A stretch of DNA of 64,000 bases, from NCBI GenBank assembly GCA_000002435.2, contig CM018793.1. One strand, given 5' to 3'. Both the position numbers and the translations under genes were made by a program. A model generated the notes under the pieces. The model worked only from the letters and a program-made list of their open reading frames with translations, had not been told where the DNA came from and did not search any database. Shown piece after piece: positions 9,466 through 45,456 of this stretch. Positions within the stretch are counted from its first letter, which is position 1, and each line of letters starts with the position of its first letter. This DNA is from Giardia intestinalis. Taxonomy: Eukaryota.

Positions 9466-10991
9466 ATGATGGGCTCTGCCGCCACAACGTTACTATTGAT
9501 GCCCCTGTTTGTAGCAAGCGTGCTCGTGGAAGCCTGCCAAACTGGCAAGTGCGAGACGGTCGGGTCCGCTGAGATCTGCACCGAGTTCAACGGCTACGGT
9601 CTCAATCTGCCCTGACGGACGGAGTGTGCATAACGGACAATAACGAGTGCAGCTAAAAACAAGGTGGTAAGTGCACACAGGTTAAGGCTGGATACTTCCT
9701 GCCGTCGGGCGTTAATAATGCGCACGACTCAGTTGTCTGGTGCGGGGATGCAACGGGTGTAACGCTTACTGGCAATAAGAAGTACACGGGCGTGGCTGGG
9801 TGTGGTAAGTGTGAGAAACCCGGTGAAGCACAGGATGGTACTCCCAAGGCCGCCACATGCACTGAGTGCCAGGCAGATAAGTATCTGAAGACAGAATCGG
9901 GGACAGCCTCTTGTGTCAGTGCAGAGGAGTGTAAGGATGGATTCTTCCCCACAGCCGATGCACAAGGCAAGAAGGTGTGTGCTAAGTGCAGCGATACTGC
10001 CAATGGTGGCATAGAGGACTGTGCAAAGTGCTCTCTCAAGGCAACGTCTGCAAGAGCAGGTCCAATGGTTACGTGCTCTGGGTGTGAGACCAAAAGACTG
10101 AGCCCCCTTAATGATGCATGTCTGGAGGAGTGCCCTGCCGGCACATATCCCGATAATCGTGACAGTACCGGCATTTGCGCTTCCTGTCACAATACATGCG
10201 CAAGCTGTAGTACTAACGCAGAAACGTCGTGCACGGCCTGCTATCCAGGGTATGTGTTGAATCGGTCGTCTGGTGACACAGGAACGTGCATAAAAGAGTG
10301 CACGGGAGACTTTATGGCCCACTGCAAGGCCGACGGCTGCTCACTGAACGTCGGAGGCTCGAAGTACTGCGATCAGTGCGAGGATGGGTACGCCCCAGTC
10401 GACGGCGTTTGCACTAAGGTGGCCAGCACAACGAGAGATGCCTCCGGATGTAAGGCAAGTGGCGGGAAATGCACTGAGTGTGGGGCAAACTACGCTCTGT
10501 TATCGGGCGGATGCTACAATACAAATAAGGTCCCCGGTAACTCTGTATGCACGTTATCCGTAGGCGGAAAGTGTACTATGTGCGTAGCAAGTGGAGCAGA
10601 TCCCAAAGGACAAGCCTGTCCTACATGCCCTGATGGTTGTTTGAAGTGTACTGGTAACGTCGGTTCTCAGACCTGTTCTGTCTGCCTTTCTGGATATTAT
10701 CTTTCTACTAATAAGTGCTTTAGGTGTACAGCAGGTGACGGAGCTAGTGCCAACGCAATCACTGGTGTAGAGAACTGCATAAGCTGTGCCCCTCCAACTG
10801 GTGGCAATGGCGGCTCTGTTACTTGCTATGTCAAGAATGATGACAGCACTGGCGACAACACCGGTGGAAGCACGAATAAGAGCGGGCTCTCCACAGGCGC
10901 CATCGCCGGCATCGCTGTTGCAGCCGTCGTCGTTGTCGGGGGTCTCGTCGGGTTCCTCTGCTGGTGGTTCATTGGCCGCAGAAAAGCATAA
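9466..10991 (+). pseudogene. Variant-specific surface protein (VSP)-like gene, apparently disrupted
   Basis: Frame 1 (9466-9615) encodes a VSP-type signal peptide and start of the Cys-rich body, MMGSAATTLLLMPLFVASVLVEACQTGKCETVGSAEICTEFNGYGLNLP, then a TGA stop. The Cys-rich body continues in frame 0 (...TDGVCITDNNECS*KQGGKCTQVKAGYFLPSG... through to 10991), which needs a frameshift near 9605-9615 and reads through an in-frame TAA at 9654-9656. A conserved CTEC looks mutated to CTEF. The C-terminal tail is ...[17 protein letters not shown] rather than the canonical ...CRGKA. The downstream body is full of CXXC motifs, and an AGTAAAT polyA motif lies at 11009-11015. Confidence 0.55.
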
Positions 10992-11008
10992 GTGACGTTT
11001 GCTCAGGT

Positions 11009-11015
11009 AGTAAAT
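11009..11015 (+). promoter_or_regulatory. Putative polyadenylation signal AGTAAAT downstream of the VSP-like gene
   Basis: ggtAGTAAAT lies 18 nt after the stop at 10989-10991. The same ggtagtaaa context follows the second VSP. Confidence 0.45.
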
Positions 11016-12697
11016 GTGTACCCGCACGGGCTGTAGGCTTGTCTATGCCACGCTAGGACCCTGAGTGCAATCGTGCACCACATTCGGGAGACGGAAGGGA
11101 AAGCCCAAGGATGAGTAGTCAGATGACTCTGGAGTCTTACCCGCGCCGTTTTCAGCCGACGTGAGGTGTCTCATTGGATCTGTGTATCGATAAGGCCCCT
11201 CCTGCTCTGACGGATCCTTTTTACCCTAAGAAACCTACCCGCTGTGGGAGCTGCGCCAGGGACAGAGTTCGACGCCCTGTGTAGGACTGCGGTGGCAGAA
11301 GAGCTCATGGGTGATGTACACTGTCACCACGTGCTTGTTTACTCTGCTCCATCAAGGTTGATTTGCCGGCTGCTGTCTGGGTAAATCCGTCAACTATGCG
11401 AGTCACCATGCTAGGCGGTCTCCTTGCTCATCCATCTAGAATCTGGACATCGCATGTAGCGCACTCAGAGCCCGCAAGGCAGCCCACCCAGGCCTGATCT
11501 GTCCGAGGATGGGATGATTGTAGACAGCAAGCGGGGGCTCTCCTCCACTGGTGTAGAGGGACAACTAGGGGCTCCGTGCAATCGTTGCCTCCGTGTCTCG
11601 GGGAGTGCAACGCAAGCTGGAGATCAGACCAGCCCGACGACCAGAACCAGAACCAGAAGCCCGACATCTGGCTCGTCGACAGATGCAAGGCGGTGGGCGT
11701 GGGTGTCATCCAGCAACCGCATGGATACCACAGCGAGAGGACAGAGGCACAGGGACATTCTCAACCATCTACGGGATGGACGGCTCCCCACTCCAGAGAC
11801 GCCAGGAAGGCCCCGCGGGCACCGAGAGTTCTGCCTGGCCCTCACTGTCCTGTGGCAGCCAATGAATACCCAGCAACTGCCCCCTGTCAACCTGTTTCTA
11901 ACCACCAACTGGACCCACTGTGGGACCAGAGTGACTGCGACTGAGAAGGCGTGCTACCCCAGAACCACGGTTGGACGGACACCGAGGGGCAACAGAGGCG
12001 ACTATCATCACTCTCAGAGAGCCACGGCGATAGAGGGCCTACCCGCTCCCAGGGGAAGCAACGACCAAAGATAAATAGCGGCGCTCCCTCATAGCGAGCC
12101 ACGGCCTCATCCACTTCCTATTGCCAAGATAGACTCTCACCGAATCAGGACCGCCAGTGGATCCGAAGCCCCAACGGCTACTGCCGTCGTGACAGGTGGG
12201 TGCATTGTTAAAGAGAATGCAAAGGCCCGCCCTCGCCCGTTGTGAAGCAGGGCCAAGGAGGAGGTCACCTCTAGGGACCACACGAGGCCGTAAGAAGGTC
12301 GGAGCCCCGGGCAGACTGGCGTGCGAGCACTTCTGGAGGCACGCTCGGCCTGAGCACACGCCCGTTGAGCGATCGAAGGAGGCGCCAGGCTCTGGAGTAC
12401 TGATAGAGGAAATCTTTCACTATGCCATCCGCGATCACCCTTCGCCTTTGGGTACGATCAGGAGCTGAGAGAGGCTTGCTTGTGAGACATCTGAACTGCG
12501 CCTGTGGATAGGCCTCGGTGACACAACACCAGAGGCCACAGAGGAGCGCTGGTGTGGTAAGCGACACTACTACTGGATGGAGTGCGCTGGAAGATCCTAG
12601 AGAGGATCCTTGCGGGCTAATTGGCTGTTAAACATTCTTCTCCTGACGTCTCATGTTACTGAGTGAAACACACAAGTAACACGTGAGTCGAGCACCA

Positions 12698-14155
12698 ATG
12701 TTACTACCAGCTCTCTGCTTTTTGATGAGCGGCCTCGCCGCGCAACGCACTAAACAACCCGCGCCCAGCTGCCAGGTCGACAACTGCGAGCAGTGTAACG
12801 CCGACAATGTCCACTGCGACCAGTGCGCAGCGGGCTTCGACCCCAACACCGACAAGACGCAGTGCGTCAGGGCGTGCCAGGTCGACAACTGCGAGCAGTG
12901 TAACGCCGACAATGTCCACTGCGACCAGTGCGCAGCGGGCTTCGACCCCAACACCGACAAGACGCAGTGCGTCAGGGCGTGCCAGGTCGACAACTGCGAG
13001 CAGTGTAACGCCGACAATGTCCACTGCGACCAGTGCGCAGCGGGCTTCGACCCCAACACCGACAAGACGCAGTGCGTCAGGGCGTGCCAGGTCGACAACT
13101 GCGAGCAGTGTAACGCCGACAATGTCCACTGCGACCAGTGCGCAGCGGGCTTCGACCCCAACACCGACAAGACGCAGTGCGTCAGGGCGTGCCAGGTCGA
13201 CAACTGCGAGCAGTGTAACGCCGACAATGTCCACTGCGACCAGTGCGCAGCGGGCTTCGACCCCAACACCGACAAGACGCAGTGCGTCAGGGCGTGCCAG
13301 GTCGACAACTGCGAGCAGTGTAACGCCGACAATGTCCACTGCGACCAGTGCGCAGCGGGCTTCGACCCCAACACCGACAAGACGCAGTGCGTCAGGGCGT
13401 GCCAGGTCGACAACTGCGAGCAGTGTAACGCCGACAATGTCCACTGCGACCAGTGCGCAGCGGGCTTCGACCCCAACACCGACAAGACGCAGTGCGTCAG
13501 GGCGTGCCAGGTCGACAACTGCGAGCAGTGTAACGCCGACAATGTCCACTGCGACCAGTGCGCAGCGGGCTTCGACCCCAACACCGACAAGACGCAGTGC
13601 GTCAGGGCGTGCCAGGTCGACAACTGCGAGCAGTGTAACGCCGACAATGTCCACTGCGACCAGTGCGCAGCGGGCTTCGACCCCAACACCGACAAGACGC
13701 AGTGCGTCAGGGCGTGCCAGGTCGACAACTGCGAGCAGTGTAACGCCGACAATGTCCACTGCGACCAGTGCGCAGCGGGCTTCGACCCCAACACCGACAA
13801 GACGCAGTGCGTCAGGGCGTGCCAGGTCGACAACTGCGAGCAGTGTAACGCCGACAATGTCCACTGCGACCAGTGCGCAGCGGGCTTCGACCCCAACACC
13901 GACAAGACGCAGTGCGTCAGGGCGTGCCAGGTCGACAACTGCGAGCAGTGTAACGCCGACAATGTCCACTGCGACCAGTGCGCAGCGGGCTTCGACCCCA
14001 ACACCGACAAGACGCAGTGCATATCTTCTAGTATCAACAAGAGTAGCGGCCTCTCCACGGGGGCCATAGCTGGTATCTCCGTGGCTGTGGTCGTCGTCGT
14101 GGGGGGCCTCGTGGGCTTCCTCTGCTGGTGGTTCCTGTGTAGGGGTAAGGCGTAG
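12698..14155 (+). CDS. Variant-specific surface protein (VSP) built from tandem 35-aa Cys-rich repeats
   Basis: Signal peptide [16 protein letters not shown]. Then about 12 copies of [35 protein letters not shown] (CXXC motifs). The C-terminus ...[17 protein letters not shown] is the canonical VSP transmembrane domain plus CRGKA tail. An AGTAAAC polyA motif lies at 14175-14181. The track start is GTG 12683, and the first ATG is 12698. Confidence 0.85.
12770..14020 (+). repeat. Tandem repeat array, 105-bp unit, about 11.9 copies, apparently 100% identical, inside the VSP coding region
   Basis: The unit tgccaggtcgacaactgcgagcagtgtaacgccgacaatgtccactgcgaccagtgcgcagcgggcttcgaccccaacaccgacaagacgcagtgcgtcagggcg recurs at 12776, 12881, 12986 ... 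13931. The last copy diverges after 90 bp. Confidence 0.95.
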
Positions 14156-14174
14156 ATTTAGCTGTGACTTAGGT

Positions 14175-14181
14175 AGTAAAC
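14175..14181 (+). promoter_or_regulatory. Putative polyadenylation signal AGTAAAC downstream of the tandem-repeat VSP
   Basis: aggtAGTAAAC lies 20 nt after the stop at 14153-14155. Confidence 0.5.
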
Positions 14182-15184
14182 GCTGTGTGGTCGACATGTG
14201 GGCGGTGTTCTGGCGTGGGTGAGCAGTGGGTGCCCAACGCCTCACACTGGTGGGCTGGGGCGCTGACCCAGAGTTCTAGCGCATGATGCCTGACCTCACA
14301 CCGAGTGGTAGTCGTGCTCGATCTCTGGGCTCCTGCGAATCTCGCATTCCATTGCTCCTGCAAACACGGTAGGAGGCTCGATCTGCGAGGGAGCTCTACC
14401 GGCGCCTGGACAATGGGAGTGTGCCCGATGGGCTGGAGGGACTTCTCAGAGAGACCGAAACGGAGCCCCGAGGCCGGCGCCCAGGATCCCGTGGTTCTAG
14501 ACTGACGTGTACGGTGTCCATGGTACAGAGGCCGTTAGGCTACCTGCTGGTGGAAAGATGGAGCTAGAAGAGGGCTTGACTGCGCTCACTGGTCCATAGA
14601 GAGTGGTCGAACGAGCGTGAGGACAGAGTATGCGTTACCAATGCGGAGCGGCTCTTCTATGAGACAGCGGAGACGTTAGTAAATAAGACTGGAATAGGTT
14701 ACTGTTACCTATATGCAGGAATTCGCCCGTCTCAGAAGGACAAATCGGGTTAATGACTGAGTTATCGGATTGTTAGGAGAGAACCATTGAAATGGAGGTA
14801 GTATGCTGACCATAGCTATAGGTAAGCACAATAACTGCTGATAGAGCAAGCCTAGAGGCAGAGGTAGACACCCTTGAAAGAAAACTCCGTGACTAGGCAT
14901 TGTATATTTCTGAACGTCCACAGGGAAAAGATGTCTAGCCTGCAGTTACACAGCAACGCCCGAGATAGAGAAAGGACTCACTGGATGCACTCTCTGTATA
15001 AAGATATAGATGGCCAGCGCATAGTAAGTCCAGCAGGACGTGCATCCTACTTTATTGACCGTTGACTACTTGTAATGATAAACTAGACGGAAGGTTCAGA
15101 AACACTGCACTAGGTGGTGCTCAGGTGCCAGTTAGCAATCCACCAAGACTTGAAAAGATATGAGATGGGCTGGTATGAATCAAA

Positions 15185-15847
15185 ATGATGCCTGCTTATG
15201 AAGCAACACTAGATGACTGTAAGCACGTGTATCTTCCTGACGAAGACACATTTCTCTTGATAGACACCCTAACAAAGCTCTCTGGGGAACTGCATCCTCA
15301 ATCGTTTGTGGAAATAGGTTCTGGATCTGGTGTTGTCTCTGTGCACATTCTACAGGTTTTCCCTGGGATCCGTGAGGGTCACGCTGTCGATATTTCTCCT
15401 CATGCCGTGGACATGACTCGGCGAACAGCTTCTCTGAATAATGTACCTCTTTGTGTTCACGAGGGATCTTTCTTCGAGCCGTTAGACGCTTACACAAACT
15501 CTTCCAAAGCCACACGATTTGACCTAATAGTTTTTAACCCACCGTATGTGCCTTCTTCGGAGACAGATCCCGCCCTTGGACCACTTGATCTGGCCCTGGC
15601 TGGAGGCAAGAACGGCTCCGAGGTGATGCTTAAGTTTTTCGAGCTTCTTCCCTCTTACTTGGCTCTTGATGGTCATTGTGTCACGGTAGCAATAGAGGAA
15701 AATGATATTGCAGCTCTCGAGCAAAATGGAAAAAGCAAGGGGTTTATAATGAGAATTCTCGCAGAAAAGCGCCTTCAATCCGAACACTTATATATCCTTT
15801 GCTTTTCCTGGGACAAAACCATGCTCTGTTCCAAAAAACTACCATAA
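15185..15847 (+). CDS. MTQ2: eRF1 glutamine-N5 methyltransferase Mtq2 / HemK2 (N6AMT1 family)
   Basis: 220 aa. Conserved blocks relative to yeast Mtq2: VYLPDEDTFLLID (yeast VYEPAEDSFLILD), EIGSGSGVV, LIVFNPPYVP (motif IV, NPPY) and LDLALAGGKNG. Confidence 0.8.
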   Translation: MMPAYEATLDDCKHVYLPDEDTFLLIDTLTKLSGELHPQSFVEIGSGSGVVSVHILQVFPGIREGHAVDISPHAVDMTRRTASLNNVPLCVHEGSFFEPLDAYTNSSKATRFDLIVFNPPYVPSSETDPALGPLDLALAGGKNGSEVMLKFFELLPSYLALDGHCVTVAIEENDIAALEQNGKSKGFIMRILAEKRLQSEHLYILCFSWDKTMLCSKKLP

Positions 15848-44839: not shown

Positions 44840-44922
44840 GCAACTTTGGCCGAGTGGTTAAGGCGCTGCGTTCAGGTCGCAGTGGGAGTCATCCCGCGTG
44901 GGTTCGAGCCCCACAGGTTGCA
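44840..44922 (+). tRNA. tRNA-Leu (anticodon CAG), class II with long variable arm
   Basis: Hand fold. Acceptor GCAACTT/AGGTTGC with one G-U pair. D-arm GCC-GAGTGGTTAA-GGC. Anticodon stem CTGCG/CGCAG with loop TTCAGGT, giving CAG. A 14-nt variable arm. T-arm GTGGG-TTCGAGC-CCCAC. Discriminator A. Confidence 0.85.
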
Positions 44923-44940
44923 CTTTGTCGCGCGCCACTT

Positions 44941-45375
44941 ACCATTACCTACCATTACCTACCATTACCTACCATTACCTACCATTACCTACCATTACCT
45001 ACCATTACCTACCATTACCTACCATACCTACCATTACCTACCATTACCTACCATTACCTACCATTACCTACCATTACCTACCATTACCTACCACCTACCA
45101 TTCCCTACCATTACCTACCATTACCTACCATTACCTACCATTACCTACCATTACCTACCATTACCTACCATTACCTACCATTACCTACCATTACCTACCA
45201 TTACCTACCATTACCTACCATTACCTACCATTACCTACCATTACCTACCATTACCTACCATTACCTACCATTACCTACCATTACCTACCATTACCTACCA
45301 TTACCTACCATTACCTACCATTACCTACCATTACCTACCATTACCTACCATTACCTACCATTACCTACCATTACC
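44941..45375. repeat. Microsatellite (ACCATTACCT)n, about 43 units and about 435 bp, imperfect in the first third
   Basis: Direct reading. The 10-bp unit is repeated continuously from 44941 to 45375. Variant units near 45021 (accatacct) and 45091-45110 (ccacctaccattccct) shift the phase. The array sits exactly between the 3' ends of two convergent tRNA genes. Confidence 0.95.
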
Positions 45376-45383
45376 GAAAAAAG
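45376..45383 (-). terminator. Oligo-T run (T6 on minus strand), putative Pol III terminator of tRNA-Met
   Basis: The plus strand reads gaaaaaag immediately 3' of the minus-strand tRNA-Met end. A run of at least 4 T is the canonical Pol III terminator. Confidence 0.5.
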
Positions 45384-45456
45384 TGCCTGTGGTGAGGCTT
45401 GAACTCACGACCTATAGCTTATGAGACTATCGCTCTGCCGACTGAGCTACACAGAC
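45384..45456 (-). tRNA. tRNA-Met (anticodon CAT), elongator type
   Basis: The reverse complement GTCTGTGTAGCTCAGTCGGCAGAGCGATAGTCTCATAAGCTATAGGTCGTGAGTTCAAGCCTCACCACAGGCA folds as a 73-nt cloverleaf. Acceptor GTCTGTG/CACAGGC with one G-U pair. Anticodon loop CTCATAA, giving CAT. T-loop TTCAAGC, which is elongator-like. It lacks the A1:U72 and triple-GC features of initiator tRNA. Confidence 0.85.

Follow-up and report, generated by a model that had tools for sequence, protein, structure and literature searches.

A tandem-repeat VSP gene of Giardia intestinalis with 11.9 identical 105-bp units, most probably the published vspC5 (vsp90)

The coding sequence at 12698..14155 of the stretch of 64,000 nucleotides analysed here (the window) encodes a VSP whose ectodomain consists of one 105-bp unit repeated 11.9 times without a single mismatch. 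With a probability of about 0.9 this locus is vspC5 (vsp90) of Giardia lamblia (syn. intestinalis/duodenalis), WB type, assemblage A1, chromosome 5. A Giardia trophozoite is coated by one VSP at a time, out of roughly 130–300 VSPs, and switching between VSPs works by epigenetic or post-transcriptional means, without any movement of genes. The vspC5 gene was described by Yang, Ortega, Sterling and Adam (1994, Mol Biochem Parasitol 68:267), cited in Adam et al. (2010, PMC2996952), and published work already covers the gene and its 105-bp repeat, the variation in length between alleles, the caveat about assembly and the immunological rationale. The new points are minor: the length of 11.9 units in this assembly, an orthologue in assemblage A2 with a single unit and only nonsynonymous unit changes, and a predicted module of two hairpins.

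The coding sequence, the array and the neighbouring DNA

The open reading frame starts with an ATG at 12698..12700 and ends with a TAG at 14153..14155; the limits given by a first-pass annotation (12698-14155) are exactly those of the coding sequence. The following features were assigned:

12698..14155, plus strand: complete coding sequence of the vspC5/vsp90-type VSP, 485 aa and stop (open reading frame listing, Pfam, residue counts)
12698..12769, plus strand: leader, a hydrophobic signal-like peptide and a short linker (sequence; helix at residues 2-14 and a low-confidence linker after it in the AlphaFold2 model)
12770..14020, plus strand: tandem array of 11 full 105-bp units and one 96-bp unit, all identical (Tandem Repeats Finder and a script)
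14021..14152, plus strand: VSP C-terminal region, 44 aa (Pfam stretch 444-485, alignment columns, AlphaFold2 helix 467-481)
about 14060..14137, plus strand: predicted transmembrane segment
14138..14152, plus strand: CRGKA cytoplasmic tail
14175..14181, plus strand: AGTAAAC, a candidate poly(A) signal read from the sequence 20 nt past the stop, which we take to fit the Giardia polyadenylation consensus AGTPuAAPy
12696..12702, plus strand: CAatgTT around the start codon, a candidate VSP initiator read from the sequence and fitting the consensus PyAatgTT (PMC2996952)

The product is composed of a 24-aa leader, a repeat region of 11 x 35 aa plus 32 aa, and a 44-aa tail. The view that the ectodomain is almost all repeat was borne out to the last residue, as all 417 residues from the end of the leader to the start of the tail belong to the repeat. 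Residue counts gave 75 Cys (15.5%) and 24 CXXC motifs, which agrees with the cysteine-rich ectodomain (about 11–12% Cys) and the frequent CXXC motifs by which VSPs are recognized; the range of Cys content across the VSP repertoire is given in PMC2996952. A PyAatgTT element spanning the start codon, as usually found in expressed VSPs other than the downstream members of linear arrays, is present as CAATGTT. A scan for promoters and terminators of the bacterial type, which is inapplicable to a eukaryote, found nothing.

Tandem Repeats Finder reported one array with a period of 105, 11.9 copies, 100% matches, no indels and a score of 2502. By script, the 11 full units represent a single distinct sequence, and the twelfth copy is a unit truncated after nucleotide 96; at both edges of the array the periodicity breaks off at once, with 0 nt of extension. 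The array begins 72 nt after the ATG and is directly followed at its 3' side by the 132-nt tail. A search of the 64-kb window for a 44-nt core of the unit found it 12 times, at a spacing of 105 nt, and at no other place; 100 shuffles gave 0 matches. Each unit encodes 35 aa with 6 Cys and 2 CXXC. The identity of the units and their position in frame, both proposed in the first-pass annotation, are therefore confirmed. The annotation had also expected spurious antisense and alternate-frame open reading frames, and such frames do exist: the minus strand has two, of 479 aa and 513 aa, and another plus frame has one of 420 aa. All of them are periodic translations that read through the stop-free unit, and they were rejected as genes.

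The gene stands head-to-tail with a second VSP-type gene:

10065..10991, plus strand: vsp91 (GL50803_14783-type), the upstream neighbour, 308 aa from the first ATG of the open reading frame 9792..10991, with a tail ending in CWWFIGRRKA

This upstream reading frame (9792..10991, plus strand) lacks an ATG at the 5' end as well as a signal-like leader and an initiator, and its tail reads GRRKA in place of CRGKA; to judge from these sequence features, it is probably a silent cassette or a pseudo-VSP. Its counterpart in the A2 isolate DH has a shortened transmembrane region and a GRRKT tail. On the other side, a glutamine methyltransferase (15185..15847) and, further away, IFT122 (20548..25677) match ATCC 50803/WB proteins exactly (KAE8304885.1/XP_001706727.1 and KAE8304889.1/XP_001706722.1, respectively). 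In the flanks, several short-read contigs show 100% identity to the window, and DH shows 98.8%.

The non-coding DNA between vsp91 and vspC5 (11000..12697) shows only 85% identity to the DH contig L001, with 50 gap openings, compared with 98.8% downstream of the VSP; the VSP neighbourhood is a local hotspot of divergence between the WB type and DH. A further observation concerns seven short-read (Logan) contigs from different runs (L005, L008-L013), all of which end at 15010, about 850 nt past the stop codon of the VSP. Within the window, 14156..15050 has no second copy, and the shared contig end may be due to allelic heterozygosity or to a repeat elsewhere in the genome.

A second repetitive element of the window, a microsatellite of the form (TACCATTACC)x44 at 44940..45375 (97% match), also yields spurious repeat reading frames. 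It fills the gap between two convergent tRNA genes:

44840..44923, plus strand: tRNA-Leu(CAG); the microsatellite starts 16 nt after it
45383..45456, minus strand: tRNA-Met(CAT); the microsatellite ends 7 nt before it

Identity with the published vspC5

The identification was made by matching the locus to the published description of the gene, and it relies on architecture, neighbour, counts, initiator, chromosome and the C5-S family. According to PMC2996952, vspC5 consists of 66 bp of 5' sequence followed by more than 20 (about 25) copies of a 105-bp repeat, which continue up to the conserved 3' end. The table of the same paper lists vsp90 as 'C5' and HT_TR105, on chromosome 5, with the Inr CAATGTT, 7 repeats, 345 aa, 51 Cys and 16 CXXC. 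The row next to it, vsp91 (GL50803_14783), is given as HT, with 308 aa, no Inr, the alternative tail GRRKA and a location on chromosome 5 (PMC2996952).

These values can be reproduced from the window. The architecture follows the formula 24 + 35n + 32 + 44 aa, with 6 Cys and 2 CXXC in every unit and 3 other Cys. For n=7 (7.9 units) the formula returns 345 aa, 51 Cys and 16 CXXC, exactly the values listed for vsp90, and for n=11 it returns the 485, 75 and 24 of the present gene. Furthermore, the upstream reading frame, counted from its first ATG, is exactly 308 aa long and ends in GRRKA as in the vsp91 row. The initiator CAATGTT of the vsp90 row is the one found here.

Additional support comes from the 5' ends of other WB genes. 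The hydrophobic leader is common to annotated WB VSPs: the first 41 residues are identical in a WB VSP of 385 aa (P0003), and the first 21 in another one of 370 aa (P0004), a length that equals the one listed for C5-S2. C5-S1 and C5-S2 presumably belong to a set of vsp genes, already published, whose 5' regions are almost the same. The shared 5' ends of P0003 and P0004 fit the C5-S1/C5-S2 family in the table of PMC2996952.

In sum, the present gene resembles vspC5 (vsp90) in the 105-bp repeat that extends from the leader to the 3' end, in the CAATGTT element, in the chromosome, where we infer a placement of the window on chromosome 5, and in the head-to-tail arrangement with vsp91; it differs in copy number only (11.9 here, 7 in the 2010 table and more than 20, about 25, in the cloned gene). 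One small discrepancy exists, namely 66 bp preceding the repeats in PMC2996952 versus 72 bp after the ATG here, and may reflect the phase in which the repeat is read. The exact 485-aa protein was not found in the protein collection or in the gene-position index, and exact look-ups of P0003, P0004 and vsp91 in that index, aimed at other assemblies with other copy numbers, gave no entry.

Family membership, predicted fold and related repeat genes

The assignment to the VSPs, already made in the first-pass annotation, was upheld by the Giardia VSP profile PF03302 (E=3.2e-37, cutoff 31.4 bits; best stretch residues 444-485) and by the CRGKA tail. A homology search of the protein collection returned 411 matches; 120 of the 120 listed carry PF03302, and among these 120 all with a source name except one are named Giardia VSP. 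In an alignment of 66 VSPs the columns from L452 to A485 are invariant or nearly so, and the C-terminal VSP region of about 38 aa with its transmembrane segment and CRGKA is accordingly present in the window gene. No protein with an identical repeat was found among the matches listed, the full-length query having included the whole unit. The 115-aa DH orthologue described below (ESU39623.1) is contained in the protein collection and is absent from the 120 matches listed, despite a common leader, unit and tail. A word-based candidate step may miss or down-rank such short, close relatives of a highly repetitive query.

An AlphaFold2 model, calculated with the 66-sequence alignment, has a mean pLDDT of 82 and a pTM of 0.28, a low value typical of an elongated rod, in which the long-range geometry is uncertain. 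In the model, residues 2-14 form an N-terminal helix, each of the 12 units has two beta-hairpins, and a stalk of low confidence (448-461) is followed by a helix near the C-terminus (467-481). Foldseek found weak local matches in the PDB to the furin-like repeats Fu1-Fu2 of R-spondin (probability up to 0.97, E about 1e-3) and also, weakly, to the cysteine-rich arrays of LRP2, with TM-scores of 0.08-0.4. The ectodomain is thus predicted to be rod-shaped, its hairpin modules being locked by disulfides and of furin-like/EGF-like type; this is a resemblance of fold type and not a family assignment. What the prediction shares with R-spondin Fu1-Fu2 and the EGF-like arrays of LRP2 are disulfide-rich beta-hairpin modules stacked as a rod; it differs in having no detectable sequence homology to them and low TM-scores. 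A sequence search of the solved structures in the PDB gave zero matches.

From these elements a type I membrane protein can be proposed, with a signal-like leader, an ectodomain made entirely of repeats, a transmembrane helix and the CRGKA tail. According to the model, each module would form two disulfide-locked beta-hairpins (furin-like/EGF-like), so that a rigid rod with about 12 copies of one epitope would result. When expressed, the gene would present a highly repetitive antigen.

The closest relative is the syntenic gene of the assemblage A2 isolate DH, ESU39623.1, which encodes 115 aa on the minus strand of L001 (14655-15002). It lies at the same position, between a vsp91-like gene and the methyltransferase, and has the same residue at 22 of the 24 positions of the leader, the same 14-residue junction and a CRGKA tail. 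However, its only unit is 32 aa long (0.9 copy), and the gene has no junction between units. Since a collapsed assembly normally keeps at least one junction, because junction-spanning reads exist, the single unit of DH is presumably real. A comparable case is vspA6-S1, in which the 195-bp repeat is present in little more than one copy (PMC2996952).

When 12770..14152 of the WB-type window is compared with L001:14655-14957 of DH, the unit is identical at 24 of 32 aa, and 11 of 96 nt differ; 8 of the changed codons are nonsynonymous and 0 synonymous. In the tail, with 86.7% nucleotide identity (18 of 135 nt different), 13 of the changed codons are synonymous and 3 nonsynonymous. The contrast between unit and tail is significant (Fisher p=2e-4) and suggests diversifying selection on the exposed module and purifying selection on the membrane anchor. 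Alternatively, the pattern could stem from gene conversion of the tail from other VSPs.

Arrays of the same kind of module are found in other VSPs. The gene vsp108 (GL50803_102662, XP_001705986.1; P0001) has a similar leader and 105-bp (35-aa) units with the same Cys spacing, the unit being identical at 20 of 35 residues. It differs from the window gene in that its array stops after about 5 units and the next 300 aa or so are ordinary VSP sequence without repeats; the overall identity is 41%. A VSP of the assemblage E isolate P15 (P0002) has 3 units with the same Cys spacing, and 25 of 35 residues are identical to the unit of the window. These shorter 35-aa arrays in vsp108 and P0002 indicate that the module is older than the array described here and was amplified independently in different genes. 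VSPs whose ectodomain is mostly built of many identical tandem units are also represented by vspA6/CRP170 (vsp67) and CRP136 (vsp130). Their units differ from that of the window gene in length and sequence: vspA6 has about 23 units of 195 bp and about 1.3 kb of non-repeat sequence 3' of its array, and CRP136 has 22 units of 120 bp. Alleles of vspA6 are reported to vary in copy number, and its repeat to be immunodominant (PMC2996952).

Status of the gene, copy number and significance

Could the locus be a silent or decaying pseudo-VSP that is never displayed, with the array as neutral, satellite-like DNA in a dead reading frame? In the new WB annotation, pseudo-VSPs make up more than half of the VSP-like sequences (PMC7000408), and the adjoining vsp91 is without leader or initiator element. 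However, the vspC5-type reading frame is intact over 485 codons and has a leader, CAatgTT, CRGKA and a candidate poly(A) signal. The unit changes between WB and DH are all nonsynonymous while the tail protein is conserved (Fisher p=2e-4, as above), unlike the pattern of a dead gene. The name vspC5 presumably derives from the WB clone C5, in which vspC5 was the expressed VSP. Organisms that express vspC5 are discussed in PMC2996952, and altogether a dead gene appears very unlikely. Even less credible is the idea that the protein is not a VSP at all but another cysteine-rich membrane protein of Giardia (HCMP class) or a secreted, toxin-like repeat protein. The unit does match the Pfam family cEGF weakly (E=3e-9, with no single stretch passing), and HCMPs too carry CXXC motifs and EGF-like modules (PMC7000408). 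However, the last 38-44 residues, with CRGKA among them, agree with the VSP profile and with every VSP in the alignment, and a CRGKA tail together with a signal peptide defines a VSP (PMC7000408); it is owing to this tail that an HCMP or a toxin-like protein was rejected.

The number of units is a separate matter, as it concerns the length of the array and not the identity of the gene. The same gene appears in three lengths: 7.9 units in the table based on the 2007 assembly, 11.9 in the window and more than 20 (about 25) in the cloned gene, annotated as 345 aa, 485 aa and more than 700 aa (clone), respectively. The warning of the first-pass annotation that the assembled copy number may be untrue was well founded in view of the 7 repeats (345 aa) of the 2007 table against more than 20 in the clone, and this caveat had already been published: PMC2996952 states both artificial condensation by assembly and allelic variability in copy number. 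It is a serious possibility, although on balance we doubt it, that 11.9 is not the true number, the array having been collapsed by assembly or being one allele of several in a tetraploid cell, with a gene about twice as long (more than 20 units, more than 2 kb). The numbers of PMC2996952 (more than 20, about 25, cloned versus 7 in the assembly-derived table) and its warnings speak for this, and so does the 100% identity of the units, owing to which nothing within the array anchors a short read. Short-read contigs were retrieved around the neighbouring methyltransferase and glycogen synthase; none of them reaches the array, and they are silent on the copy number. On the other hand, the PacBio WB assembly was built at 200x coverage from reads with an N50 of 12.7 kb (PMC7000408). 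If the window derives from that assembly, most reads span the 1.25-kb array, and 11.9 is then probably the true length, at least of the majority allele. Moreover, the clone with more than 20 copies came from another WB subclone decades earlier, and both numbers may be true.

Gain or loss of whole units, as the identical copies recombine unequally or slip during replication, would explain the preserved frame, the perfect identity of the units and the existence of alleles of different length, and could be the reason why about 8, 12 or more than 20 units are found in different sources. The recent expansion or homogenisation put forward in the first-pass annotation is consistent with the single diverged unit in the syntenic DH gene. 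In a tentative reading that is less likely than not, the 11.9-unit array might be a genuine allele of today's WB-C6 line that coexists with, or is descended from, the allele of more than 20 units of 1994 and the 7.9-unit form of 2007, while A2 keeps a single ancestral unit. If this were true, the locus would be a fast length-changing, perfectly homogenised antigen array with a unit under diversifying selection, and the array might be used as a natural clock, or as a marker, of recombination among the four copies of the genome that the two nuclei of Giardia contain.

By means of repeat-bearing VSPs, Giardia can alter the size and the epitope valency of a surface antigen without new sequence. 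Such a change is already established for vspC5, so the window gene adds no new biology in this respect. As the length of vspC5 differs among sources, comparative and proteomic work on VSPs should not trust an assembled copy number. The single-unit A2 orthologue with its exclusively nonsynonymous unit differences is a small, possibly useful pointer to the timing of the expansion and to selection on the module.
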